Positions 10,265 through 30,588 of a stretch of DNA of 64,000 nucleotides are shown piece after piece. Under the pieces are notes generated by a model. That model was not told the DNA's origin, did no database searches, and saw nothing but the letters and a program-made list of their open reading frames with translations. The translations under genes were made by a program, and so were the position numbers. The stretch covers positions 7,540 through 71,539 of the forward strand of contig JAQBFN010000020.1 of NCBI GenBank assembly GCA_032123335.1. The letters are read 5' to 3'. Origin of the DNA: Candidatus Micrarchaeota archaeon (GTDB lineage Archaea > Micrarchaeota > Micrarchaeia > Anstonellales > Bilamarchaeaceae). Every line of letters begins with the position of its first letter. Position 1 is the stretch's first letter.

Positions 10265-11680
10265 ATGAATTTTGAGAGTACTGCAGAAGTGCCAATTCCC
10301 CAAGACCCCTTAGAAAGGGTGATAGGCCAGGAAGAAGCAGTAAAAATCTCTCGCATAGTCTCAACTCAGAAGCGCCATCTCCTGATGGTAGGCGCCCCCG
10401 GTACAGGGAAAAGCATGATTGCGCGCACTATCGCCAACCTTTTTCATTCCCCACAGCAGGAACTCTCAGTTTTGCACAATATGGAACGCCCCGAGCGCCC
10501 GATACTTGCGGTGCGCACAAGGGAAATGCTCGAAAGGGAAAAAGGCGAAAAGGAAAAGGAATGGGGCGAGGTTCTCCATCCTGCAGAAGTTCCCTCATTT
10601 GTTTCTGAAAGGCTGGGGTTCCGCTGCAGGAGGTGCGGAGACCTTTCCATCTCCCGTGCCCTCTATTGCCAGTCCTGCGGAGCTGACAAGCATCCCAACA
10701 AGGACTCCCCCTTTGGAGACCTACTCCCAAACTCTGAACAGCGCGATGGCCGCGTCCACGCAGTCCGCATAGATGAAGAGGGGGAAGAGGAGCCGGTAAT
10801 CTACGAAAAAACCGAAGATGACCGCATCCGCAAGCTTACCTATACTGAGCTCAAGAAGCGCAGCGTTTCAAGCGCAAAGAAGCTCCGCAAGGTAATCGTT
10901 CCGCTCAACCGCCCCACATTTGTCCAGGTGGTTGGAAACAACGAAACCGAACTCCTCGGTGATGTTCGCCATGACCCATATGGGAGCCACCCTGAAATCG
11001 GGACTCCCCCTTACCTCCGCGTAACCGCGGGCGCAATCCACGAAGCCCACGAAGGCGTCCTTTACGTGGATGAGATGACCACGCTTGGGGAAGCCCAGAA
11101 ATATCTCCTCACCGCAATGCAGGAAAAAAAATTCCTGATCACCGGACGAAATCCCTCCAGCGCAGGCTCCACGGTTCGCGTTGAATCCGTTCCCTGCGAC
11201 TTCATACTCGTAGGCGCAATGAACATCAATGACCTTCCTTCCCTTTCACCCGCACTCCGCTCAAGAATCCGCGGAAGCGGCTACGAAATTGTCCTCAACA
11301 CAAACATGGAAGACACTAACTACAACCAGGAAAAAATGTCCCAGTTTGTTGCCCAGGAAATCCAGATGGATGGCCGCATCCCCCACGCCACCGCAGAAGC
11401 AGTGGAAAAAGTACTGGAGGAATCCCGCAAGATTTGCAGGATCACGGACAACAAATCCGGCCTCACGCTCCGCCTCCGCATCCTTAGCGGAATCATAAAG
11501 CTCGCAGGCGACTTCGCCTCCATAGAAAATTCCAAATTCATAGAGTCGGCCCACATGACCCAGGCAATAAAGCAGGCCAAATCCGCAGAGGAGCAACTTG
11601 AAGAAAAATACGGAAACATCTGGAGCGCAGGCATGGCTGATTACGGTGCCCGCCTCAAAAAAGGCTCAGAAATCGCCTAA
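10265..11680 (+). CDS. LonB-type AAA+ ATPase lacking the S16 protease domain, with a C4 zinc-ribbon insert
   Basis: VIGQEEAV…LLMVGAPGTGKSM (Walker A), VLYVDEM (Walker B), LLTAMQEKKFLITG…PCDFILVGAMN…ALRSRIRGSGYEIVL and FVAQEIQMDGRIPH…LTLRLR. All are LonB AAA+ hallmarks. CRRCG…CQSCG lies between Walker A and B where LonB normally has TM helices. The protein ends where the protease domain would begin. Confidence 0.75.
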   Translation: MNFESTAEVPIPQDPLERVIGQEEAVKISRIVSTQKRHLLMVGAPGTGKSMIARTIANLFHSPQQELSVLHNMERPERPILAVRTREMLEREKGEKEKEWGEVLHPAEVPSFVSERLGFRCRRCGDLSISRALYCQSCGADKHPNKDSPFGDLLPNSEQRDGRVHAVRIDEEGEEEPVIYEKTEDDRIRKLTYTELKKRSVSSAKKLRKVIVPLNRPTFVQVVGNNETELLGDVRHDPYGSHPEIGTPPYLRVTAGAIHEAHEGVLYVDEMTTLGEAQKYLLTAMQEKKFLITGRNPSSAGSTVRVESVPCDFILVGAMNINDLPSLSPALRSRIRGSGYEIVLNTNMEDTNYNQEKMSQFVAQEIQMDGRIPHATAEAVEKVLEESRKICRITDNKSGLTLRLRILSGIIKLAGDFASIENSKFIESAHMTQAIKQAKSAEEQLEEKYGNIWSAGMADYGARLKKGSEIA

Positions 11681-12394: not shown

Positions 12395-12826
12395 TTAGCG
12401 CAAGAGGAAGTACATTTTTCTTCCTACTTGTATTTTTTCCAGAACACCCTGCTTCGTTAGCCTATTCAGCCTCGAGCTCGCTGCATTGCTGCCCTTGTAA
12501 CCGAATTCTTTCTGAACATCCCGTGCGGTGGACTTGCCTGCCTTGGCAACAAAGTCTACTATTTTCTGGTCTATTTCGGAGAGGAACGCGTTTTGGGGAG
12601 GTACGCTCGCTTCCTTACCAGCCTCGATCTTATCCAACCGCGCCAGGACATTCTTTAGTACTCGGTTCGTGTTTTCCCTTTCTTCCAGGAGCTTGTAGGC
12701 TATGGTCGCTAGCACTACCGGGTCCTTGAATTTCTCAAGGTTCTCCCTCAACTCTTCCTCTATTTCTTTCTGGAGGTACGGGGACGGCACGCTTTTAAAC
12801 TTTTCCTTCGATTGTCTCTCGGGCAT
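12395..12826 (-). CDS. Winged-helix transcriptional regulator
   Basis: C-terminal wHTH (…IVDFVAKAGKSTARDVQKEFGYKGSNAASSRLNRLTKQGVLEKIQVGRKMYF). Divergent from the downstream nuclease operon. Confidence 0.6.
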   Translation of the reverse strand: MPERQSKEKFKSVPSPYLQKEIEEELRENLEKFKDPVVLATIAYKLLEERENTNRVLKNVLARLDKIEAGKEASVPPQNAFLSEIDQKIVDFVAKAGKSTARDVQKEFGYKGSNAASSRLNRLTKQGVLEKIQVGRKMYFLLR

Positions 12827-12963
12827 TTTTTACTTGCCTCACTTGGGTGTCTGTTGTTGCGACAAACTTGTGCAACTGTCATGACATTATCATGATAAGT
12901 TTATAAGCCTCACATTTTCCCCTCTTCTCTCCGTCGAAACTCTTTTTCAAAATAGCCCCAAAA

Positions 12964-13578
12964 ATGCCCTTTTTTGCCCCAAATAGCTCAATTTTTATAA
13001 GTTACTCCAGATACTCCAACATGCTCGACCTCCCGACTGCCGCCAAATTGGTGCAAGACGCATTCAGGACCAGGAACCAGCGCAAGATGCGCAAGGCTAA
13101 TGACAAGATCATGAGGGAATGGATTCTCTCTCCTTCCAATGAGCTATACCAACTCTCCGTTTACTCATATGTGCTCGCGAAAATACTTTCCAAGCCCCGC
13201 TTCATGGGCAGAACATACTCGGGAAAGCACAAGGAAATAGATTCCCTCCTTTCACGGCTCGTTTCCCTTGCACAAAAAAACAACCAAAAGGAATTCTCCC
13301 AAACCCTCCTCACCCTCAAGGCATCAATCCAGGATGTGGAAAGCTCGGATGCGCGATACATAAAGAACATGATGGAAAAGGGCCGCCTCAAAACCGCGGC
13401 CACCCTTTATGCACAGGGCATATCGCTTTCTGCCGCCTCCGAAATGACCGGAGTGGAGAAACAGGAGATAATGGACTATGCGGGAAAAACCCTGATGTTT
13501 GACCGCATGGGAGAAGGGGAAAACCTTCCCAAGCGCCTGAAAAAAGCAAGGAAAATACTCATGGGTGGTAAAAAATGA
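12964..13578 (+). CDS. Hypothetical protein, first gene of the putative nuclease operon (true start may be Met19, MLDLPT…)
   Basis: ORF only. 4-bp overlap (ATGA) with the next gene. Confidence 0.35.
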   Translation: MPFFAPNSSIFISYSRYSNMLDLPTAAKLVQDAFRTRNQRKMRKANDKIMREWILSPSNELYQLSVYSYVLAKILSKPRFMGRTYSGKHKEIDSLLSRLVSLAQKNNQKEFSQTLLTLKASIQDVESSDARYIKNMMEKGRLKTAATLYAQGISLSAASEMTGVEKQEIMDYAGKTLMFDRMGEGENLPKRLKKARKILMGGKK

Positions 13579-14261
13579 AAACCAACTACGTTCTCTGTGA
13601 TGCGAGCTCCCTCATTTCCCTCACAGTCTCCTGCCTCGATAGCCTTCTCCCGTTTTTCCAGGAGAAGTTCGGGATTCGCTTCCTGATTCCCAAATCAGTT
13701 GAATATGAAGCAGTAACCCGCCCACTTTCTTTCAAGAGCAAGATACACAGCTTTTCCGCCCTCCGCATCAAGGACATGATACATGATGAGGTAATTGAAG
13801 TAGTTTCTGATAACGCAGAAGAGGAAACAAAGGAGCTGATGAGGCTTGGAAACAGCATATTCCATGCACGTGGCCGCACTGTCCGCCTAATGCACATGGG
13901 CGAAACCGAGATGCTCGTTCTTGCAAGCCGCCTCCAGGTACCATCTCTCCTCATGGATGAGCGCACAACCCGCATACTTGTAGAGGATCCAATCTCAATG
14001 AAGAAGCACCTCCAGCATGAATTCCGTGCAAACATAATGGTGAACAAGAAGAATCTCCTGGATTTCTCTTCCAAGGTAAAAGACCTGGACGTAATCCGCA
14101 GCACCGAGCTTCTTTACCTCGCATATGAAAACGGCTTCCTCAAGCACTTCAACGACATAGAAAAAGACGCTGCGGAAGCAGCCCTTTACAATCTCAAATA
14201 CGCGGGCTGCGCAGTAAGCTTCAACGAACTCAAGGAATATGCAAAGTTGATGGTGAAATGA
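13575..14261 (+). CDS. PIN-domain protein (putative nuclease)
   Basis: N-terminal YVLCDASSLISL (PIN acidic motif 1). Downstream conserved acidic residues (…GETEMLVLA…, …LMDERTTRIL…). Overlaps both neighbours by 4 bp. Confidence 0.45.
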   Translation: MKTNYVLCDASSLISLTVSCLDSLLPFFQEKFGIRFLIPKSVEYEAVTRPLSFKSKIHSFSALRIKDMIHDEVIEVVSDNAEEETKELMRLGNSIFHARGRTVRLMHMGETEMLVLASRLQVPSLLMDERTTRILVEDPISMKKHLQHEFRANIMVNKKNLLDFSSKVKDLDVIRSTELLYLAYENGFLKHFNDIEKDAAEAALYNLKYAGCAVSFNELKEYAKLMVK

Positions 14262-14923
14262 ACAAGGCCCTAATCGCAATGGATACCCGCGAAGACTCCT
14301 CCTTCCGGGAACTCCTGGAATCCCACGGTGCAGAAGTCCAGGTTTCTCCTCTCCCAGTGGGAGATTTCATCTGCTCCGACCGCACAGTGATAGAGCGCAA
14401 AACCCGCTCTGATTTTGAATCCTCAGTAATTGATGGCCGCCTCTTTGACCAGCTTTCCCGCCTCTCTTCTTCCTATTCCCGCGTAATCCTCATTATAGAA
14501 GGAACAGAATCTCCCGGCACTCTCCAGAAGCCCTCCCTCCTTGGCGCATACTCCTCCGTTCTCACAGACTACGGGGCAGGAATGTTCTTCACCCGCTCAC
14601 CCGAATCCACCGCAGAACTAATTTATGCAATTGCAAAGCACGAGCAGCTGATGGAGAAGCGCCCCCTCCGCATAAGCGGAAAGCCCAAAGGCAAAACCCT
14701 CCCCCAAAACCAGATTGCAATCGTAGAAATGCTCCCCCTCGTAGGCCCGAAAATGGCCCGCACCCTCCTTGAAAATTTCGGCACCATAGAGAACCTTTTC
14801 AACGCTTCTGAAGAAGACCTCCTCAAGATTGAAGGCCTTGGAAAAAAGAAGGCAAATGTAATCCGCAAGGCCCTCACCACCCCCTACGAACCCGAAGAAG
14901 AAATCCCACCGGAAGAATACTAA
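14258..14923 (+). CDS. xpf: Short archaeal XPF/ERCC4-family structure-specific endonuclease (nuclease + HhH2)
   Basis: ERCC4 signature …LPVGDFI…VIERKTRSDFESSVIDGRLFDQ… plus a C-terminal tandem helix-hairpin-helix (MLPLVGPKMARTLLENFGTIENL…LLKIEGLGKKKANVI). Confidence 0.8.
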   Translation: MNKALIAMDTREDSSFRELLESHGAEVQVSPLPVGDFICSDRTVIERKTRSDFESSVIDGRLFDQLSRLSSSYSRVILIIEGTESPGTLQKPSLLGAYSSVLTDYGAGMFFTRSPESTAELIYAIAKHEQLMEKRPLRISGKPKGKTLPQNQIAIVEMLPLVGPKMARTLLENFGTIENLFNASEEDLLKIEGLGKKKANVIRKALTTPYEPEEEIPPEEY

Positions 14924-14953
14924 GAATACCCTTTTATTACTTATTTCCGATAT

Positions 14954-15877
14954 GTGCACATGATTCTCCCCGTCAGAGGTAAATCCATAGGCCTGGACAA
15001 GGGAAAGTGCGACCTCCCATTCCTTTCGCACGCCCACGGGGACCACACAAGCGGGATGAAATCCAAAGAAGAAATCATTGCAACCGAAGCAACAATCGAG
15101 CTCGCCCGCCTTTCCGCTTCCTCAGTTTCCCACCCTGGAACCGAACTCCTCAACGCCGGCCACATCCTAGGCTCCACCCAGCTTTGGGCCGAATCCGATG
15201 GCTCCACTACCCTTTACACAGGGGATTTCCGCACCCAGGACGGAATCTACACAAAAGGCGCAACCCCCAAGGAAGCTGACCGCCTCATAATTGAATGCAC
15301 CTATGGAGACCCCTCAATCACTTTCCCCCCACTTGAAGAAACATACTCCCAGATTTCCCGCTGGGTAAAATCCAACTCCAACGCCATCCTTGTTTTCGGT
15401 GCTTATAATCTAGGAAAAACCCAGGAACTAATCAAAATCCTCAACGAGTACTGCTCCATAACCCCAGTAGTTACCCAGGAATCCGAGCACTTTAACCAGG
15501 TTTACGAAAAGCACGGAGTCAAACTCGACCGCGTAGTTGTAGGAACAGATGAAGCAGAAGAAGTTATGCGCGGCCCCTTCGTATCCATTGCCCCCCCACG
15601 CATTGCAAAGCGCACCTTCACCTCCAAGCTCTCCGGAGCCTTCAACCTTCCAGCCTACTCCGCACTTGTTTCCGGCTGGGTCCAGAAATACCGCACACGT
15701 GTGGATGCGGGCTTCCCTCTCAGCGACCACTCAGACTTCAACGATATCCTGGAATATATTGACCTCGTAAACCCAAAAGAAGTTGTATTCGTGCACGGGG
15801 ATGGCTCCCATTTAATGCGCGCCCTCAACAAAAGAAAAGGAACCTTATTCGCCTCGCTTGGGGGCAGCAGCCCATAA
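14954..15877 (+). CDS. Metallo-beta-lactamase-fold nuclease (beta-CASP-like, 307 aa)
   Basis: HxHxDH motif (SHAHGDH). Downstream SDHSD and a terminal VFVHGDGSH, which resemble beta-CASP motifs B and C. It lies 30 bp after xpf on the same strand. Confidence 0.6.
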   Translation: MHMILPVRGKSIGLDKGKCDLPFLSHAHGDHTSGMKSKEEIIATEATIELARLSASSVSHPGTELLNAGHILGSTQLWAESDGSTTLYTGDFRTQDGIYTKGATPKEADRLIIECTYGDPSITFPPLEETYSQISRWVKSNSNAILVFGAYNLGKTQELIKILNEYCSITPVVTQESEHFNQVYEKHGVKLDRVVVGTDEAEEVMRGPFVSIAPPRIAKRTFTSKLSGAFNLPAYSALVSGWVQKYRTRVDAGFPLSDHSDFNDILEYIDLVNPKEVVFVHGDGSHLMRALNKRKGTLFASLGGSSP

Positions 15878-15927: not shown

Positions 15928-16000
15928 GGCCATGGTAGTGTAGCTGGCATCACGGGGGGTTGTGGTCCCCTTAACCCGAGTTCGAATCTCGGTCATGGCC
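15928..16000 (+). tRNA. tRNA-His (anticodon GUG) with a genome-encoded G-1
   Basis: Acceptor GCCATGG/TCATGGC, anticodon stem GGGGG/CCCCT with loop TTGTGGT, T-arm CCGAG-TTCGAAT-CTCGG. An extra 5' G at 15928 pairs with discriminator C73, the archaeal tRNA-His hallmark. Confidence 0.85.
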
Positions 16001-16032
16001 CTTCAATTCCGGCCCATCAGAAAAAGAGTAAT

Positions 16033-22591: not shown

Positions 22592-25500
22592 ATGAATATG
22601 GCAGCAGTTGTAGAGCGGAGTAATTGGTGTAAATTACTGCTAGCCGTATTTATGCTCGTTTCCCTCTCTTTTTCCGCCGGATTCACCTCCGAAGACCTTT
22701 CCAATAAAATAACCTTCATTGACATCTCTGCCGTGGATGGAGTGGTAACCGCCAAGCTCACTGTGCTGACGATGGATGCCAGCATTGAGCACAACCAGTC
22801 CGCCCTCATTGAGGCGTTCAGGGAAGCAGAGAAAGGAAACCAGGCAACCGCAGAGCAAATCCTCGAGGAAGCAGGCCTGAACACTTTCTCAGGGTATTTA
22901 GGCAAAATCGAATCTGAAAGGGCCCCCATAGAAGGTGCAGACCTCAATTTCTACTACACAGTAAAAACCTACGATGATGACAACTATCCTGTCTTCACCA
23001 GGGAGCCAGTGCCCTTTTGTGCAGAGCCAGACCCGGTGCTAACTGATGAGGAGGGGATCGCAGAATGCGACCTCACCCCTTATTATGAAGGAATATACGA
23101 GGGTAAATGCACAGAAATTTCCGTGGTTTTCGGGGATTCAGTATTTGGCACCCAGCTAAATGACGAAACTTATCCCTATGTAGAAGAGATAGTTTACGTA
23201 TGTGACCAGGAAACAACCGCACTCGCAGTAATGCGCGAAGAGATAAGGACCATATTCTCAGACCAGGCCCAGAACCCCCTCTGCTTTGCATCAATGCTTT
23301 TGGGAGGAATGCTGCTCGCTTCAATGTTCTTTGCAGGAAGGAGCCCACTTTCCCTCCTTGATATCACAACACCCCTTCTCCCCAAGGCAAAAGCCATCTC
23401 CTACAGCGGCCTTAGGATGGGAGTCGGTTTCGGGCGCATCATGAAAGAGATGGGTGGCATGGGCGGGCCCGGAGGCATGATTGCATCCTCTTCCAAAGCA
23501 ACCACCGAGCGCATGCTCCGCTACCTCCGCTCCAAGGGCAAATACAGCAAGCGCATGGTTGACCTCATAATGAATTCCGGGGCCAATGAAGTCCTCAAGA
23601 TGCTTGCTCTCCGCTCACTTATTGCAGGAAAAAGCGAGCATTATGTAAAGGGCATTCTCGGGTTCAAGGGAAAAGCCCTGACTGAAGCAGATTTCCAGTC
23701 GGCCTATGCAAAGGTTCTTGCAGACCTTGATAAATCTTCAGATGCAAACGACCTGAATGAATACACGGTTAAGGGGTATGGTGCTAATGCACAGAAGCAG
23801 GGCCTCCACGATTCAGTGCTCCTCCTTGCCCAGATGAGCATGCTTAATGCAATGCAGCAGCAAGCCTTTATTGATTCTACCGGGGAAATACCTGCCTGGT
23901 TCAAGACCCCGCTTGGAAAAACCCTGGGAAGGCTCCCCTTCATCGGAACCCACATAATGGGAGGCACAGCATCCCTCTTTTTTGGTGGCAGGCACCTAGG
24001 CCGCTATTACAATAGTTTTGCAAGGGGAGCAGTGCGCGGAATAGGCGATGTGTTAACCCCCAAAGATAAGAAATTCAGCAAGCGCATCCAGATGGCTGTT
24101 GACGATGCGCGTGTAAAAGGCAAGAAGCCAGGATTTTTTGCAAACTGGGTTGCCCTCAAGGACAATGAGCGCCAGCTCGTAAAAATCTTTGACAATTTTG
24201 AATACGGTTCCGCACTCTACAAGCGCATGATGAAGGAAGCCCGCAAGGATGTCCTCAACTGGCTCGTGGGTACGGTAATTGCGAAATACGGAGGAAAGAT
24301 GGACCTCACCCGTGAAGAGGTTATAGAAATTGGGGAAAAGACTCCGGATGAATTGATGTTCCGCACCTTCAACAAGATTGAATTCTCAAAGATTGAAGGA
24401 GAGCTCCGTAGGCTCCTCTCAGATCCAGGCATGAGGGACCTCCAGAAAGCCCGCGCCCTGATGCGCCTTATGGAAGCATACGGAATAGCTTTCGACAAAC
24501 AGGGCGTTACTGATGCAATCCACATGCTCTCCAAAATAGACCGGGAAGACCCCAAATCCCCTGCAGCAGTAGGCATAATCGATCCGACCAACAGGTACGC
24601 AATGGATTGCCACAAGCTCATGCGCCTCCAGAGCTACCTACAACAGCAGTTCAACGTTGACAGGCTAACAGACATCAAGTCAGAGTACAAGGCTTTCCAG
24701 GACGGAGGAAAATTCTTCTTCACAGTAGGAAGGGAAACCCTCTCCCACGGCGCAAGCGATTTCACGTTTGGCACCTTTTTCCGCTCCAAGTACCGCGAGG
24801 CGCTTGAGAACTCCAAAGCAGGGGAAACCCGCCCCATCTCCATAAGGGACATCGCGAACTACTCTTTCCTCCGCATCGCAAACGAGCGCTGGGGACTAAT
24901 TGACCCAAATATGCCCGGCCTGGACAAGAAGCTCGTAGCAGTAATGAAGAACGCAGAAACCTGGCTCCGCTCCCTAGCAGATCCAGAGTTCCTCAGGCGC
25001 AACCCCTCGTACTCCAATCTTCTCAATTCCCTTTATGGCCCAAGTGCCCGTGCTGGTGTGAAAGACGACACCATGGACATAATGGAGCACGGTGCCGAAT
25101 ATGGCACAGCCAAGGGCGCGTGGCGCATGGACATGAAGGCCCACTGGAAAATTTACGGGGGCCCGATGGGCGGAGTAAAATCTTCTGTAGAAAACCAGGC
25201 ATTTGGGGAAGTTAACCGTGCCCACAATGTCCCCATGGCTATCCAGTCGATGATTGACAAGGGACTCAACTACAAGGATGCTTCAGGCAAGTACATGAAC
25301 ACTGTTGTTGAAAGCTACCTCTTCAAGCGCCTGAAGGGAATGATAGAGCAGGACAATCCAAATACCTATTTCACTTCCCAGGGTGAATTCGACCGCTTCA
25401 GGCAGCTCTGGGCCTCTTACAAATCACACATTGCCAGAGACAAAGGCATAGATGAAAGGAGTGTTACCGACAAGCAGGTTGCAGAATTCATAAAGAAGCC

Positions 25501-28219
25501 CCTTGGGATTGAGGAGCTTTCAAAGTCCAGCTGGATAAGGCTGAAGGAAGGCTCAGTTGCTCCGTTTATCCAGGAACACACTTTCAAGCTTGCCCAGGCC
25601 GACCGTGTAATAAACGCCAAATATTACATACGGCGTGGCGGGTACTGGGAGGAATTCGCGCCTGAGAAATTCCAAAAGCAGAAACCATTTATGGATGTTG
25701 TCCTGGGCAAGGACAGCGAAATCAGGAAAATGCTTGGGGACAAGGATTACATTCTTTCTGGAGGTGAGATACGTGGTGTATCCAACAAGCTCCTGAAGGA
25801 ATATGAAACTATTATGAATAACCTGGCGCGAGTACCCCAGGCAGATATTGACAAGCTTTTCGCGAAACTCAAAACAGGCGCTGCGAAAGACCCCAAGAAT
25901 TCTGAAGCCTATGCTGCAATGGCAGGATATGTGCTCAGTGGAAGGGCAGGAAGGGACCCAACTAAACTTGACCTTGCCGATAATTTCGGGACCCGTCTAG
26001 GTGAAAAAGTCCGCATGGAACTCATGCTCAAGGACTACCAGAATGCCAAAACCACGGAGCAGAAAAGGGCTGCCGCCAGGGACCTTATGAACTGGGCAAA
26101 AGCAGGAGGGCCTGGTGAGGAGCGCCACGTAAAAGTCGCCCTCCTCCTGTACACCCACGCAGACAGAACCGGGGACTGGAAAGATTTCAACAATTTTGAT
26201 GCAGTGAAGCTCATGCCCGGTGCAACTGCAGATCTAAAGCCTGGCAATGTCCAGGAGTACGAAAAGCTCACCGGGCTCAAAGGCTGGATCAAGAATGCAG
26301 TTAACCTCACCCAACACATCACAGACCCGATAAGCAAGAAGTTCAACCTTGGGCTTGAGCAGTTCATGCTTTCCACTTTCGGCAAGCAAATGAAGAGCGA
26401 ATATGAAGGAAGCCTTGTTTCAGAATACTTCAGGCAAACAGGAGGAAAATTCGCTGCTAAGCTTGCGGCAGGGGAATTCGGCAACCCGGATATGCGAGCC
26501 AACGCGGACCCAAGAATAAAGGAATTCAACCGCCTCATGGATTCATTTACCCGCTACCATGCAGTCTGGGACGAGACAATCACCCGTGACCCCAGGGGCA
26601 ACTCTTCAGCCATTGGGGGCGCATTCATTTACTCAGGTTTCTTCCACCACGGTCCTGCCATGGGATTCGGCCCCGGCATGTACAGGAGATGGTCGTCTGC
26701 AGGCCACCAGCAGCCCTGGACTACCTGGGGAGGATTCAAGGCAAATGTGCGTGAGCGCGCATGGGGCCTCCAGTTTGTCCCCCAGATGTTCAACTGGGCA
26801 GTGGGAACTCCTTTTGGTGTTGCCTACAGGACATACATAACCTCCAGATGGGGCTTCATGTCCAAGTATGACAGGAAATACAGCAGTGACGCCCCCCTAG
26901 TCACAGAAACCCCTGAAAAATACCGTGCAGGCGCAATTCAGAAATATGATGATCAACTGGCAGCCTATCAGGCTAAAATGATTGAGCAGATTGCTAAACT
27001 CCAGCAAAACAAGGGCTATTCAAACGAAGATGCATTTACCCAGGCCAACCAGGAGCTCAGGGGTGAAAGGCCAACTCCTCCTTCATTTGAGCTGGAGCGT
27101 GACACCCTCAGGCCCTATTCCGAAACCCACCCCAGGACTTCAGAAGGCCGCGCTGCAATGTTCAACTGGTTTTATGCTTCATTTGACCCCACATCAACGA
27201 ACCTCAAGCGTTTTGCATCAATCGCGGCCGCTGCACCCGGTTCACTTATGACTCCCCTGCACCTAATCAGAGGAGTGCAGAGCAATATCCTGAAGGGGGG
27301 CACTCCCGGGATAAACCGCTCTGACAGCAACCCATACTATGTAACTCCCGGAGGAATGAGGGGCCAGATGATAAAGGCTACTGGCCCCATGGTCAAGAGG
27401 CAGTATGGAGGAACTGAAATTGTTACCGGTGTAGTACGGTCCCATGAAGATATGTGGGCTTACCAGGCAGGGGTTAATGCTGTTTGGGGCAATGCAAACC
27501 CCGGCGCATCCTACATTGATTTCAGCCAGAGCCTACACCTGGACCCCCGCGCAGCCAACTATCTCCGCTATGAATCACGTTTCCGCCCATATATGCAGTA
27601 TGATGAATATGTGGACAAGCAATCCAAGCTCGGCCTTGTGAAGAGGGACATCGACCCATTCAAGCTCATGATGGCAAGGAATGCAGAAATCAGGCATTAT
27701 AAGTTCCCTGAGAACACTCTCTTCAGGTTCCTAAACCCAGCAGCATTCGCTATCTACAAAGCACAAGCATTTGTTACCAAGCGCGGGCAAACCCTTGTCA
27801 ATGCAAGGAACATGTATAGGGATGCAACAACCAATGTTTCAACCACCACCGGCGGGGCTATGCTTACAGGAGTAGGCAACTTTGCATCCAAGATAGGTGG
27901 CAAGGTAGGGACTATGATGCACCAGAATCTAGAGCTTGGATTCAGGAAGAGCATCCGCTACTGCCAGTCCTGCGGAGGGCCGAGGGTTGAAGGCGGCGTA
28001 TGCAATGCCTGCGCAAGAAAAACAAGATGTTCTTACGAAGGATGCGACCATATCGGGGACCCATCCCACAACCACTCCTGCGTACATGGAATACAGCGCA
28101 ACCTCCTGAATGAAGAATTTTCTCAAAAAGGCGGCTTCAAAGTTGCAGGAGAGAGGGCCTCCGGTTGGTATGGCCTAAGAAAAAGCCATTGGGGAACACT
28201 ATGGGGTAGAGAACCATGA
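22592..28219 (+). CDS. Giant (1875 aa) single-pass membrane/surface protein of unknown function
   Basis: Uninterrupted 5.6-kb ORF. N-terminal signal peptide, a ~220-aa N-terminal domain, then one TM (…CFASMLLGGMLLASMFFAG…). No P-loop or known catalytic motif. Trp/Gly-rich segment (aa ~1330-1420). C-terminal Cys/His cluster CQSCGG…CNAC…CSYEGCDH…HNHSCVH. Confidence 0.7.
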   Translation: MNMAAVVERSNWCKLLLAVFMLVSLSFSAGFTSEDLSNKITFIDISAVDGVVTAKLTVLTMDASIEHNQSALIEAFREAEKGNQATAEQILEEAGLNTFSGYLGKIESERAPIEGADLNFYYTVKTYDDDNYPVFTREPVPFCAEPDPVLTDEEGIAECDLTPYYEGIYEGKCTEISVVFGDSVFGTQLNDETYPYVEEIVYVCDQETTALAVMREEIRTIFSDQAQNPLCFASMLLGGMLLASMFFAGRSPLSLLDITTPLLPKAKAISYSGLRMGVGFGRIMKEMGGMGGPGGMIASSSKATTERMLRYLRSKGKYSKRMVDLIMNSGANEVLKMLALRSLIAGKSEHYVKGILGFKGKALTEADFQSAYAKVLADLDKSSDANDLNEYTVKGYGANAQKQGLHDSVLLLAQMSMLNAMQQQAFIDSTGEIPAWFKTPLGKTLGRLPFIGTHIMGGTASLFFGGRHLGRYYNSFARGAVRGIGDVLTPKDKKFSKRIQMAVDDARVKGKKPGFFANWVALKDNERQLVKIFDNFEYGSALYKRMMKEARKDVLNWLVGTVIAKYGGKMDLTREEVIEIGEKTPDELMFRTFNKIEFSKIEGELRRLLSDPGMRDLQKARALMRLMEAYGIAFDKQGVTDAIHMLSKIDREDPKSPAAVGIIDPTNRYAMDCHKLMRLQSYLQQQFNVDRLTDIKSEYKAFQDGGKFFFTVGRETLSHGASDFTFGTFFRSKYREALENSKAGETRPISIRDIANYSFLRIANERWGLIDPNMPGLDKKLVAVMKNAETWLRSLADPEFLRRNPSYSNLLNSLYGPSARAGVKDDTMDIMEHGAEYGTAKGAWRMDMKAHWKIYGGPMGGVKSSVENQAFGEVNRAHNVPMAIQSMIDKGLNYKDASGKYMNTVVESYLFKRLKGMIEQDNPNTYFTSQGEFDRFRQLWASYKSHIARDKGIDERSVTDKQVAEFIKKPLGIEELSKSSWIRLKEGSVAPFIQEHTFKLAQADRVINAKYYIRRGGYWEEFAPEKFQKQKPFMDVVLGKDSEIRKMLGDKDYILSGGEIRGVSNKLLKEYETIMNNLARVPQADIDKLFAKLKTGAAKDPKNSEAYAAMAGYVLSGRAGRDPTKLDLADNFGTRLGEKVRMELMLKDYQNAKTTEQKRAAARDLMNWAKAGGPGEERHVKVALLLYTHADRTGDWKDFNNFDAVKLMPGATADLKPGNVQEYEKLTGLKGWIKNAVNLTQHITDPISKKFNLGLEQFMLSTFGKQMKSEYEGSLVSEYFRQTGGKFAAKLAAGEFGNPDMRANADPRIKEFNRLMDSFTRYHAVWDETITRDPRGNSSAIGGAFIYSGFFHHGPAMGFGPGMYRRWSSAGHQQPWTTWGGFKANVRERAWGLQFVPQMFNWAVGTPFGVAYRTYITSRWGFMSKYDRKYSSDAPLVTETPEKYRAGAIQKYDDQLAAYQAKMIEQIAKLQQNKGYSNEDAFTQANQELRGERPTPPSFELERDTLRPYSETHPRTSEGRAAMFNWFYASFDPTSTNLKRFASIAAAAPGSLMTPLHLIRGVQSNILKGGTPGINRSDSNPYYVTPGGMRGQMIKATGPMVKRQYGGTEIVTGVVRSHEDMWAYQAGVNAVWGNANPGASYIDFSQSLHLDPRAANYLRYESRFRPYMQYDEYVDKQSKLGLVKRDIDPFKLMMARNAEIRHYKFPENTLFRFLNPAAFAIYKAQAFVTKRGQTLVNARNMYRDATTNVSTTTGGAMLTGVGNFASKIGGKVGTMMHQNLELGFRKSIRYCQSCGGPRVEGGVCNACARKTRCSYEGCDHIGDPSHNHSCVHGIQRNLLNEEFSQKGGFKVAGERASGWYGLRKSHWGTLWGREP

Positions 28220-30588
28220 ACAAACTGCACATATTCATACTGATTGCAATTCTGCTATTCGGATGCACAGAAATGGAAAACTATTATGAGGGGGAAGGGA
28301 AAGAAATAAACCGCACAGAACCCCTGGATATGGACAACCTGATTTCCTGTGACACCACAGACCATGATTGCATCTGCATGGTCTGCGAAAACAGTGATTC
28401 ATTTGAATTCACCAATCCCTTCAACCGTTTTTACAGCATAGACCTCAGGGAAGGAGAATGCAGATTCGAAACAGATTGCACAGAGGAAAAATTCCTGGAA
28501 ATCTCCACCCCGGATTTTGAGAATTTCCTTTTTGGCCAGGAGCAGGTGCGCTTCTTCATGCTTGGCCAGGGCTCGAATTTTGCAGAGTTCGCAGACGCAA
28601 ACCGCTACTGCAATAACTCCCTTAGGCTCGCAGTCCGCTGGCTCTATTCCACTGATGGATTTGAGTATCCTGCCCCCCAGCCCGAGCGCGCAGAATGCTT
28701 CCTTGAAAAGGACACGCTTCCCGTTTACCTCCTTTACAGCGAAGGAGAAGCAATGAGCGTCCCCCGTGCTGCTTACATCGCATCGCAATTCCAGGAATCC
28801 GGCCCCGTAATCCTTACTTCTGAATTCGATTTCGACCCCTCCAACTTCCAACAGCTTAACGATGCAATAGACCAGGCTATCGCAATGAAATCCGCTTGCC
28901 CTGATTGCCTGATTGCAATCGCACCCAAATTCAAATACAACTACAGCGAAGTTGATGGCGAATATTACGGCTATAACCACACCTACGATGCAATCGATTA
29001 CATTTTCGAGACCCAGGAGGCCCGTGACAGCATAGCCCTTGTTGCCATAGGCCTCAATTCCCATTACACCCAAAACTGTGCAGGCGCTTCCCTCCTTTGG
29101 GATGGGATGGCTTACTCCAAATACATAATGCAGCAGCATGGAAAGCCCACGCTCTGGGCATATGTTCTTCTTGATGATAGGCAGCCCAGTGCAGCCCCCT
29201 ATGGTTCCCTTGAATACTGCGAATGGAATTCAGATGAGATCACACGAACATACGGTGACCTCTACAAATACATCCCCTCTTTCGTAAACAATGGGGTAAT
29301 CGGAATCGCCCCATATTCCCTTTACGGTCTGGGTACGGGTCCGCTTGAATGCGCAGATTGCGGAATGATGGCAGTGGATGGAACAACTTATCCACAGCAC
29401 GCAGAATGGTTTTCCCTCTGCCAGGTTTACTATACCGGGAGGGGAGTAATCCCAGTGGTTTTCTCCCCCAGCCCATGCGCTGACTGCTCATTTGCAAACA
29501 ACTTCAACATGTTCCAGCTTTCCGACTCTTACTACGGCTCCGGCCCAACCATTGAGCAATACCAGGACAAGGCAGTTGCTCCCTTCTCCACATTCTATAG
29601 GTGCAACGGACAGCTCATGAGTGAGGTACCCGAAGAGATAACCCTCCCTTCTTACTCTGCGGGCGATAATGAATGCAACTGGTACCCCGAGCTGGATATT
29701 TTCTCAGACCTCCGAGACTCCGACCCTGTGCTTGCCCGTGCAATAACCTGGGGTGAAACCGGCTTAAATGATGATACTGAAGGCCCAGATGGCGACATGT
29801 GTGAAGCTTCTGATGTTGATTTTGGCCTGGCCAGCTTTCCTGAATGCGTAACCGACCCAGAGGGAAGATGTGGAACACAGTGCGCCCCGACAAACTGGCG
29901 CAAGCATTCCCTGGGCCTCATGCAAATCCATGTATATCCCCAGCAAATCTGGGCCGATTATCCCCCTGGCTCTGGAACAGAGCAGGAGGCTCTCTGGTGC
30001 GCTGGAAATGCCGTAGATGGATTCAACCCATTCAACAAAGCCCACAACGCATGCGTAGGGACCGCAATCATCCTGGAATATCTCCAGGTGGGAAAATCCA
30101 AGGTTTCAAGCAATGAGCAGCAGCTCGGGCTCGCCTACCTAAAAACCACATATGGGGAAGACAGCGATGAATACCTCAACATGAAGAACGCATTCATTGT
30201 TTTCATTTCTTCTTATTACTACAACGGGTTCTCAGCCTTCCAGAACGGAATAGATTCCTGGATATATGAATACTCCAAGCAGAGCGGGATAACCGATGAA
30301 TACTGCGAAGTTGCAGCCGGCTCAGACCCCTGCTGCAACAGCGATGGCACAGCCAAGAGCAACAACTGCTGTGGAGTAGAGAACTTCATAAACTACTACC
30401 AGTCCTGCAAGCTCCCCACACTTTCCAACCAGCAGGCAGGGGCATACGGGCTTAGGCTCCTCGGCCACTACAAAGCCCTTCTAAAATGCGAAAAATACGA
30501 TGAGGCCCAGCACGAGCAGAACCTCATAGACTACCTTGAATCCTATGGTGAATCATTAGAAGAACCAGAGGAAGCGGAAGAAAGCTAG
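28216..30588 (+). CDS. Cys-rich lipoprotein with lytic-transglycosylase (SLT/lysozyme-like) motifs
   Basis: Lipobox LFGC. About 50 Cys. ITWGETGLN…SLGLMQIHVY…KAHNACVG…AIILEYLQ corresponds to SLT motifs I-III (E-S/T, GLMQ, AYNxG). 4-bp overlap with the giant gene. Confidence 0.55.
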   Translation: MNKLHIFILIAILLFGCTEMENYYEGEGKEINRTEPLDMDNLISCDTTDHDCICMVCENSDSFEFTNPFNRFYSIDLREGECRFETDCTEEKFLEISTPDFENFLFGQEQVRFFMLGQGSNFAEFADANRYCNNSLRLAVRWLYSTDGFEYPAPQPERAECFLEKDTLPVYLLYSEGEAMSVPRAAYIASQFQESGPVILTSEFDFDPSNFQQLNDAIDQAIAMKSACPDCLIAIAPKFKYNYSEVDGEYYGYNHTYDAIDYIFETQEARDSIALVAIGLNSHYTQNCAGASLLWDGMAYSKYIMQQHGKPTLWAYVLLDDRQPSAAPYGSLEYCEWNSDEITRTYGDLYKYIPSFVNNGVIGIAPYSLYGLGTGPLECADCGMMAVDGTTYPQHAEWFSLCQVYYTGRGVIPVVFSPSPCADCSFANNFNMFQLSDSYYGSGPTIEQYQDKAVAPFSTFYRCNGQLMSEVPEEITLPSYSAGDNECNWYPELDIFSDLRDSDPVLARAITWGETGLNDDTEGPDGDMCEASDVDFGLASFPECVTDPEGRCGTQCAPTNWRKHSLGLMQIHVYPQQIWADYPPGSGTEQEALWCAGNAVDGFNPFNKAHNACVGTAIILEYLQVGKSKVSSNEQQLGLAYLKTTYGEDSDEYLNMKNAFIVFISSYYYNGFSAFQNGIDSWIYEYSKQSGITDEYCEVAAGSDPCCNSDGTAKSNNCCGVENFINYYQSCKLPTLSNQQAGAYGLRLLGHYKALLKCEKYDEAQHEQNLIDYLESYGESLEEPEEAEES

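Follow-up and report, generated by a model that had tools for sequence, protein, structure and literature searches.

Gene composition of the locus

We analyzed a 64,000-nt stretch of a contig from a member of Micrarchaeota (DPANN), hereafter the window, and the coordinates below are window positions unless a locus of another genome (L numbers; see the survey below) is named. The subject is a gene cluster in the window centred on the gene of a short XPF endonuclease. Open reading frame (ORF) calling recovered four ORFs on the forward strand at positions 12964-13578, 13575-14261, 14258-14923, and 14954-15877, of which the first and second, as well as the second and third, overlap by 4 bp each, and a spacer of 30 bp separates the third from the fourth. 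The same co-directional layout had been described in an initial annotation, which was made from the letters of the window alone. We refer to the products of the four genes as ORF1, ORF2, XPF, and the metallo-beta-lactamase (MBL) or beta-CASP protein, respectively. A gene for a winged helix-turn-helix (wHTH) protein of 143 aa lies upstream on the reverse strand (12395-12826) and is divergent from the four genes.

The start codons of two genes deserve attention. The maximal reading frame of ORF1 opens at 12964, but the homologues (n = 99) are about 181-185 aa long and cover approximately 90% of the query, and the ATG at 13021, which gives a protein of 185 aa, is therefore the most likely start. 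Likewise, as the alignment with the MBL homologue in L001 begins at residue 3 of the query, the MBL gene probably starts at the ATG at 14960 (305 aa) instead of the GTG at 14954 (307 aa). The XPF-MBL spacer contains a TATA-like sequence, TTTTATTA (14932-14939, forward strand), 21 nt before the ATG at 14960, and this gene may thus have a leaderless promoter of its own; on inspection of the spacer, we consider that such a separate promoter is probably present.

XPF

The third gene (14258-14923, forward strand) encodes a protein of 221 aa composed of an ERCC4 nuclease domain and C-terminal HhH2, without a helicase domain. The Pfam scan detected ERCC4 (PF02732) with an E-value of 1.7e-27, as well as HHH_5, HHH, and HHH_2 at residues 159-208, and the protein was aligned end to end with the A. 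pernix XPF structures 2bgw and 2bhn with E-values of approximately 1e-39 (3e-39 for 2bgw). Furthermore, the catalytic residues G35-D36, E46-R47-K48, and D52 (GDxn-ERK-x3-D) are invariant in the family alignment (A3). Judged by these matches and residues, the third gene is that of a short XPF, as initially annotated, and the protein is catalytically intact.

In the NCBIfam scan, XPF scored 203 bits against the Hef model NF010337, but the match was confined to the C-terminal 210 residues of the model, and the score against the crenarchaeal Xpf equivalog (NF040956; 131.7 bits) was under the cut-off of 300 bits. The nearest relatives outside Micrarchaeota are the Hef genes of Methanothermococcus, with 43-45% identity. 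XPF of Sulfolobus is dependent on PCNA. No canonical PCNA-interacting protein (PIP) box was recognisable in the C-terminal tails of the XPF sequences, in which only a loose aromatic-acidic patch was found. We considered this patch as a motif for PCNA or another partner and rejected it, as it showed no correlation with the presence of ORF1 and ORF2.

ORF1 and ORF2

ORF2 (13575-14261, forward strand; 228 aa) appears to comprise a PIN fold of the COG2405/DUF3368 type and a C-terminal helical extension of approximately 80 aa. No match to PF11848 at the gathering threshold of the current Pfam was obtained for ORF2 or the 26 family members, ORF2 matched no NCBIfam model, and the sequence search against PDB was empty even at E <= 10. 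The homologues carry precomputed matches to PF11848 (DUF3368/COG2405), all of which are weak or faint. As the Pfam and NCBIfam scans were empty, the PIN assignment rests on the fold, the conserved acidic residues, and the pairing with ORF1. The AlphaFold2 (AF2) model built on 26 homologues had a predicted local distance difference test (pLDDT) score of 95.7, and its top PDB matches in Foldseek were VapC/PIN proteins (probability of 0.96-1.0 and target TM-score of 0.55-0.67, albeit with E-values of only about 1e-2). The best of them was the VapC PIN toxin 5x3t_B (probability of 1.0, target TM-score of 0.67, E = 1e-2). Four acidic residues, namely D9 at the end of beta1, E45 in the helix after beta2, E110 of the GExE motif at the N-terminus of a helix, and D128 at the end of a strand, occupy the canonical PIN positions and are invariant in the 26 sequences, and the DERTTR motif is invariant as well (alignment A1). 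The initial annotation of a PIN gene before XPF is thus borne out by the fold and these residues. A profile search against 1.84 billion representatives showed that the family comprises 585 clusters at 50% identity, nearly all of which are 215-240 aa long. Besides the acidic residues, C20 and C212 are invariant in the family, C8 is conserved in at least 90% of the members, and H145 is nearly invariant; C8, C20, C212, and H145 might constitute a metal site that joins the PIN core and the C-terminal extension.

ORF1 (13021-13578, forward strand; 185 aa), which had been left as hypothetical in the initial annotation, is probably better described as a UPF0175-like partner of the PIN protein. In the predicted architecture, a helical bundle at the N-terminus is followed by a UPF0175-like HTH at the C-terminus (...KGRLKTAATLYAQGISLSAASEMTGVEKQEIMDYAGKT...). 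The alignment of 99 homologues has a mean column identity of 52%, with a highly conserved C-terminus (KGRLKxAATLYAQGISLGxASEMTGxEKQEILDYAGKT). UPF0175 (PF03683) matched 20 of the 28 family members weakly, the best E-value being 2e-3, below the cut-off. The AF2 model is all-alpha with a pLDDT of 86, and the Foldseek search of this model against PDB returned only non-specific helical bundles and no informative fold match. UPF0175 has been found exclusively next to COG2405 PINs (Matelska et al., PMC5499597), and hence the weak assignments of ORF1 to UPF0175 and ORF2 to COG2405 support each other. The pairs of COG2886 and PIN have been predicted as toxin-antitoxin (TA) systems (Makarova et al., PMC2701414).

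Three proteins of 403-430 aa (P0445, P0475, and P0480) fuse an ORF1-like N-terminus to an ORF2-like PIN, which was confirmed by hhalign (probability of 95.9%, E = 5e-9) and by the hidden Markov models (HMMs) of both families. The fused genes (L088, 6001-7212; L089, 1195-2406; L090/L091, 763-2013) occur with none of XPF, the wHTH gene, and the TCATGA operator (see below) nearby. Since the fused genes stand apart from XPF, we regard the ORF1-ORF2 pair as a self-contained unit, which in Micrarchaeota came to be inserted between a regulated promoter and XPF. Altogether, ORF1 and ORF2 seem to derive from a TA-type pair of UPF0175 and COG2405 that was enlarged and became fixed.

Beta-CASP nuclease

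The fourth gene (14954-15877, forward strand; 305-307 aa) encodes a small MBL protein in which motifs 1-4 correspond to D15, H26xH28xD30H31, H70, and D91, each kept in at least 95% of the 111 family members. The position of beta-CASP motif A (114) is occupied by E in 99 and by D in 12 of the 111 members, D258-H259 of motif B is conserved in all of them, and the alignment to CPSF73 spans motifs A, B, and C. The profile matches, the solved relatives, and the motif conservation place the protein in beta-CASP and not among glyoxalase- or sulfatase-type hydrolases, so that the earlier designation as beta-CASP-like can be kept. The protein matched TIGR04122 (ligase-associated DNA damage response exonuclease) over the full length (query 25-294; E = 1.2e-39, 136.1 bits), the score being under the equivalog cut-off of 325 bits, which indicates a related clade instead of membership of the equivalog. 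This family is by far the best curated relative; aCPSF1 (1.9e-12) and Cas14 (1.9e-13) matched the central 100 residues only. Among the solved relatives, CPSF73 (8e-11), Apollo (1e-9), and SNM1A (1e-8) were not discriminating, and RMMBL, described in Pfam as an 'RNA specificity' domain, was matched with an E-value of 3e-7. From the motifs and profiles, we conclude that the fourth gene encodes a true beta-CASP nuclease, the closest family of which is the bacterial ligase-associated 'Exo'.

In the original description of the beta-CASP family, a His at motif C is said to mark RNA-acting members and a Val the DNA-acting members of the SNM1/Artemis type. Motif C of the window protein is H281 (nt 15794-15796). 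Of the 111 family members, 46 carry His and 45 carry Cys at this position, and Val is not among the commonest residues; this split fits neither pattern, and the rule gives no answer. We know of no description of a His/Cys dichotomy at this motif. Whether DNA or RNA is the substrate of this enzyme cannot be told from the sequence. On three contigs, one of which was named Aenigmarchaeota by the source, relatives with 35-39% identity are directly upstream of, and co-directional with, the genes for primase (PriS/PriL-type) and GINS (L084, 6001-8937; L085, 6001-9534; L087, 6001-9245), and PCNA, TFS, and NucS (Endo_dU) are encoded a few kb away. The context of one further relative was uninformative. 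Judging from this arrangement, the clade of small beta-CASP proteins may function in association with the replisome. In bacteria, Exo is linked to DNA ligase, Lhr-Core, and MPE; it was uncharacterised as of 2020 and predicted to be SNM1B/Apollo-like (PMC7826289, PMC7470946). As the beta-CASP proteins occur in three independent contexts of DNA metabolism (XPF; primase-GINS; bacterial ligase/Lhr-Core/MPE), a role on DNA is favoured in spite of the 'RNA processing' annotations of the relatives.

A gene for tRNA-His(GTG) is located at 15929-16001 on the same strand, approximately 50 nt past the stop codon of the beta-CASP gene, and the same tRNA gene was found about 60-510 nt downstream of the beta-CASP gene in seven related loci (L004, 7704-7776; L006, 7724-7796; L007, 7867-7938; L008, 1847-1919; L019, 7674-7740; L020, 8344-8415; L025, 8075-8146). 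This adjacency could be synteny of a subclade or a hint of an RNA/tRNA connection for the MBL enzyme. A gene for a 300-aa protein downstream of XPF in L003, taken up as a candidate for the MBL gene, turned out to be unrelated.

Conservation across Micrarchaeota

We scanned genome contigs of GTDB species representatives with XPF as the anchor and obtained 80 loci, of which 76 contained the micrarchaeal short XPF (38-86% identity to the window XPF) and the other four long Hef genes. The ORFs in these loci were searched with the HMM of each component, and a locus was regarded as assessable when at least 2 kb upstream (67 loci) or at least 5.5 kb downstream (48 loci) of XPF was available. ORF1 and ORF2 were found upstream of XPF in 43 of the 67 loci, and a divergent wHTH gene upstream of ORF1 or XPF in 48. 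Eleven of the 67 loci (13 in all) possess the wHTH gene and XPF without ORF1 and ORF2, and 12 of the 67 have none of ORF1, ORF2, and wHTH, these being the loci of the most divergent XPFs, e.g., those of Norongarragalinales. In 30 of the 48 loci, the beta-CASP gene was detected no more than 5.5 kb from XPF; counting all loci, it was found in 39, and in 38 of these it is encoded downstream of XPF and on the same strand.

The median gap was -4 nt between ORF1 and ORF2 and +1 nt between ORF2 and XPF. The position of ORF1 and ORF2 upstream of XPF is kept down to approximately 39% identity of XPF, with a mean column identity of 50-52% in the two families. As a control of synteny, other neighbours were counted, and a LonB-like ATPase was found in 14 loci, a flippase in 4, and NMD3 in 3. 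The linkage of XPF and the beta-CASP gene persists in the lineages without ORF1 and ORF2 and below 50% identity of XPF, whereas that of the other neighbours does not. Altogether, the arrangement recurs far beyond chance in the 76 species-level loci of Micrarchaeota, and the linkage is by no means unique to the genome of the window. The cluster had initially been proposed to be a three-nuclease module. The linkage of the three nuclease genes is indeed conserved, but the tight unit consists of ORF1-ORF2-XPF only; the beta-CASP gene is linked more loosely (0-5 kb) and probably has its own promoter.

The LonB-related AAA+ ATPase of the window (10265-11680, forward strand; 471 aa) matches only the ATPase/lid part of LonB (profile 170-402 of 608), without a match to the protease domain; it is this protein whose gene lies close to XPF in 14 related loci. 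We also noticed 19 loci (e.g., L036, 6883-7395, as well as L049, L059, and L041) in which XPF is directly followed by the gene of a coiled-coil, low-complexity protein of approximately 170 aa, which precedes the beta-CASP gene where the latter is present. It is absent from the window, and most of the loci without ORF1 and ORF2 have it.

Divergent wHTH gene and candidate operator

The wHTH protein has a conserved, coiled-coil-like N-terminal helix (...LLEERENTNRxLKNLL...) and a predicted C-terminal winged HTH (...YKGKNAASARLNRL...QVGRKVYF), and a conserved recognition-helix region is visible in the family alignment (A4). All of the wHTH profiles matching residues 82-140 scored below the cut-offs (Penicillinase_R, 21.6 against 22.6 bits, 3e-4; LexA_DNA_bind, 19.8 against 23.7 bits, 7e-4), and the similarity to the DNA-binding domain of LexA in PDB (1lea) was weak (E = 0.057).

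Between the wHTH gene and ORF1, we identified a candidate operator at 12877-12898, which is composed of two tandem palindromic boxes, TGTCATGACA and TTATCATGATA, phased by 11 bp and abuts a TATA-like box, TTTATAAG (12900-12907). In the related loci, two and sometimes three or four TCATGA-centred palindromes recur with the same phasing, and a TATA box follows 3-6 nt later. This operator-side box mostly reads TTTATAAA, a self-complementary sequence, and could be shared by the two divergent genes; in the loci with a short intergenic region (e.g., L022 and L025), it is approximately 20-25 nt before the ORF1 start. Of 52 loci, 51 have a match to the regular expression TCAYG[A/C]-N5-TCAYG[A/C] next to the start of the wHTH gene, whereas the remaining approximately 856 kb of the loci contain three matches. 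The match in the window is a single one, 0.43 being expected by chance.

An inverted repeat, GTTGCG-N9-(T)GCAAC (12856-12876), separates the start of the wHTH gene from the TCATGA boxes. Repeats of the GTTGCG-N9-CGCAAC type, such as GTTGCGATGAAATCACGCAAC, were seen in many related loci and often precede the TCATGA boxes; the repeat in the window is a candidate for either a second operator or a hairpin in the 5' untranslated region of the wHTH mRNA. The palindrome GTTGCG-N9-GCAAC has one exact match in the 64-kb window. Since the operator and the palindrome each occur once, no wider regulon is visible in the window.

Seen from the wHTH gene, the boxes come after the TATA box and before the start codon, i.e., at the classical position for autorepression; seen from the ORF1/XPF operon, they are immediately upstream of the TATA box. 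The wHTH protein most likely binds the TCATGA boxes as a dimer. Control of the operon by this protein is likely but less certain than autoregulation. A second TATA-like box of the same sequence, TTTATAAG, which is part of direct repeat D3, lies 20 nt upstream of the ATG of ORF1 (12994-13001, forward strand); it is compatible with a leaderless ORF1 transcript, and the closest relatives (L004-L006 and L009) share it. The region between the operator-adjacent and proximal TATA boxes contains a 21-nt tandem direct repeat (GCCCCAAAAATGCCCTTTTTT/GCCCCAAATAGCTCAATTTTT; 12955-12996), which can be recognised in L004 too.

Other features of the window

Two very large overlapping ORFs on the forward strand (22592-28219 and 28216-30588; 1875 and 790 aa) had no Pfam match at E <= 1e-4. 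From approximately 4 kb onwards, almost all 2-kb bins have a negative GC skew on the forward strand (to -0.40), regardless of the strand of the genes, and the cumulative skew declines steadily and does not turn within the 64-kb window.

A proposed regulated nuclease cluster centred on XPF

The gene identities, the intact active-site residues, the conservation of the gene arrangement, the operator, and the ORF1-ORF2 fusions are observations. With modest confidence, we lean towards the reading that they represent a lineage-wide, XPF-centred, and regulated nuclease cluster of Micrarchaeota, in which branched nucleic-acid intermediates would be processed. The wHTH protein would bind the tandem TCATGA boxes at the shared TATA box as a dimer and repress its own gene, and also the operon where the latter starts directly beside the operator. 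The core operon ORF1-ORF2-XPF would be translationally coupled via the 4-bp overlaps. ORF1 and ORF2 would form a two-subunit PIN nuclease, which is of TA-type ancestry and now a fixed chromosomal component. XPF would incise branched DNA such as 3' flaps and stalled forks, the beta-CASP protein (of the Exo, SNM1/Apollo-like clade), probably expressed from its own promoter, may resect 5'->3' from the incision, and the PIN complex may remove the flap or the RNA strand at the same intermediates. Physical or functional cooperation of the proteins, their substrates, and the direction of the regulation are what we infer here.

Several points weigh against the cluster as a cooperating unit. Cooperation is deduced from the gene order, and the related genomes in the survey are non-independent samples. 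Only 10 loci have the beta-CASP gene immediately next to XPF; elsewhere it is 0.2-5 kb away, often with unrelated genes in between, and it has an apparent TATA box of its own. The match to RMMBL, CPSF73 as the best solved relative, and the annotations of the relatives by the sources ('Cft2 family RNA processing exonuclease' and 'mRNA 3-end processing factor') speak for RNA as its substrate. The PIN protein may act on RNA too, because COG2405 PINs belong to the VapC-like group of RNase toxins (PMC5499597). ORF1 and ORF2 are not obligatory partners of XPF, as they are absent from 11 loci with wHTH and XPF and have fused versions without XPF. As for the regulation, the window and its closest relatives have the second TATA box on the ORF1 side of the operator, and the operator remains with the wHTH gene after insertions (L010, L014, and L035); the regulator may therefore mainly control itself. 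For control of the locus by the divergent wHTH gene, which was suggested in the initial annotation, the operator conserved in 51 of 52 loci is strong comparative evidence.

The first of the alternatives is that ORF1 and ORF2 are a type II TA system, composed of a UPF0175 antitoxin and a COG2405 PIN RNase toxin, and have no functional tie to XPF, in which case the neighbours of XPF would be unrelated to it. The UPF0175-like HTH of ORF1, the VapC-like best fold match of ORF2, and the order of the genes, with the antitoxin upstream and an overlap of 4 bp, are all as expected for such a system, and the pairs of COG2886 and COG2405 are predicted TA systems in the literature (PMC2701414, PMC5499597). 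The absence of the two genes from the 11 assessable loci (13 in all) and the fusions away from XPF also fit it. On the other hand, the two proteins (185 and 228 aa) are much larger than the typical members, and they are encoded at the same position phylum-wide, down to about 39% identity of XPF, unlike mobile and patchy TA loci. Furthermore, the stop codon of the PIN gene overlaps the XPF start in the window (median gap of +1 nt across loci), covalent fusions of ORF1 and ORF2 are hard to square with an antitoxin that is degraded separately, and PADLOC shows nothing beyond weak PIN similarity. Considering both sides, we regard a TA system independent of XPF as rather unlikely.

The second alternative concerns the beta-CASP protein, which might be an RNA-processing enzyme (CPSF/RNase J/RNase Z-like, acting, e.g., on RNA 3' ends or tRNA) that stays close to XPF merely because gene order is inherited in small, slowly rearranging genomes. 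Its RNA-side similarities (RMMBL, CPSF73, and the source annotations), the TATA-like box of its own, the variable distance from XPF with unrelated genes in between, and the tRNA-His gene that immediately follows it, both in the window and in seven related loci, are in favour of this explanation. It is at odds with the best match, which is to TIGR04122 over the full length (1.2e-39 versus 1.9e-12 for aCPSF1), and with the residue at motif C, which is His in only 46 of the 111 members and Cys in 45. The linkage to XPF survives the loss of ORF1 and ORF2 and a decrease of XPF identity to less than 50%, unlike that of the other neighbours, and the relatives on three other contigs are beside primase-GINS and near PCNA and NucS. 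We therefore hold such an RNA-processing enzyme to be rather improbable. The last alternative, a defence island against viruses or mobile elements, is very improbable. PIN and beta-CASP nucleases do occur in defence systems, including Cas14 of type VII CRISPR, which is a beta-CASP (weak match, 1.9e-13), and ORF2 is weakly similar to the candidate system PDC-S70 (E ~1e-3), but no component had a significant PADLOC match, the locus is a single, vertically conserved syntenic one across the phylum with housekeeping neighbours, XPF is a canonical repair nuclease, and neither a CRISPR array nor an integrase is found in the locus.

The XPF-centred cluster can be read in a bolder way. The TA-derived pair may have been domesticated as the partner of XPF and, together with the beta-CASP protein, constitute a repressor-controlled, multi-nuclease regulon for fork or crosslink repair. 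It would be a prokaryotic counterpart of the eukaryotic XPF-SNM1A and the first dedicated, operator-defined DNA-damage regulon to be described in DPANN; we find this extension doubtful. That the small beta-CASP clade represents a replisome-associated 5'-3' nuclease in genome-reduced archaea is a further possibility.

None of the components falls outside the known superfamilies, and there is nothing unusual about XPF itself. Full-text searches of the literature on XPF with beta-CASP in archaea or Micrarchaeota returned no description of the cluster. What is apparently new is the conserved combination, ORF1 and ORF2 as candidate partners of XPF, the linkage of XPF and beta-CASP in archaea, and the pair of the regulator and operator. 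To our knowledge, little is understood of how XPF works in archaea other than Crenarchaeota and Euryarchaeota, and the repair pathways of DPANN are essentially unstudied. The locus provides testable candidates, namely the ORF1 and ORF2 families and the small beta-CASP protein, all of which are genomically tied to XPF, as well as a regulator with a sharply defined candidate operator (TCATGA-N5-TCATGA) next to a TATA box. If the proteins cooperate, the partnership of XPF and beta-CASP would predate eukaryotes, the ORF1-ORF2 pair would be a clear case of a TA pair recruited into core DNA metabolism, and the cluster would provide an approach to bacterial 'Exo', an uncharacterised family. Even without cooperation, the cluster is of use in Micrarchaeota as a marker operon and as a defined pair of regulator and operator.

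Comparison with known systems

The short XPF of crenarchaea (A. pernix) shares with the window XPF the combination of ERCC4 and HhH2, the GDxnERKx3D motif, a length of approximately 220 aa, and the lack of a helicase. The window XPF differs from it in being closer to the profile of the Hef nuclease (203 bits) than to that of the Xpf equivalog (132 bits) and in being embedded in the neighbourhood of wHTH, ORF1, ORF2, and beta-CASP. The nuclease and HhH2 parts of euryarchaeal Hef (1j22-1j25 and 1x2i) are the closest curated profile match, whereas the window XPF is devoid of the N-terminal helicase of Hef, and no gene for a Hef-type helicase is adjacent.

The beta-CASP protein and bacterial Exo (TIGR04122) are both approximately 300-330 aa long, can be aligned over the full length, and are tied to DNA repair through gene context only. 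The window locus and those homologue loci whose genes were inspected one at a time contain no gene for ATP-dependent DNA ligase, Lhr-Core, or MPE, and no such gene is among the recurrent clusters that were examined in the survey of 80 loci; the beta-CASP gene is partnered by XPF here and by primase-GINS in L084, L085, and L087. XPF-ERCC1 and SNM1A/Apollo of eukaryotes belong to the same two enzyme superfamilies, which are joined here by gene linkage. There is no ERCC1-like partner in the locus, as the XPF is presumably homodimeric, and any likeness to the unhooking of crosslinks in eukaryotes is functional speculation only.

Finally, ORF1 and ORF2 appear to show the same pairing as the TA pairs of UPF0175 (COG2886) and COG2405-DUF3368, with an HTH gene upstream of the PIN gene and overlapping genes, and have a common PIN signature of the GExE...DERxxR type. 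Compared with these pairs, both proteins are enlarged, ORF1 by an N-terminal bundle of about 115 aa (185 aa in total against the small size of the family) and ORF2 by a C-terminal extension of about 80 aa, and both miss the gathering thresholds of Pfam. Their distribution is not the mobile, patchy, and often multicopy one of the TA type: the two genes are fixed before XPF in 43 of the 67 loci, and fusions into a single polypeptide exist. In contrast to the known pairs, ORF1 and ORF2 occupy one syntenic position across the phylum, coupled to XPF and occasionally fused to one another.

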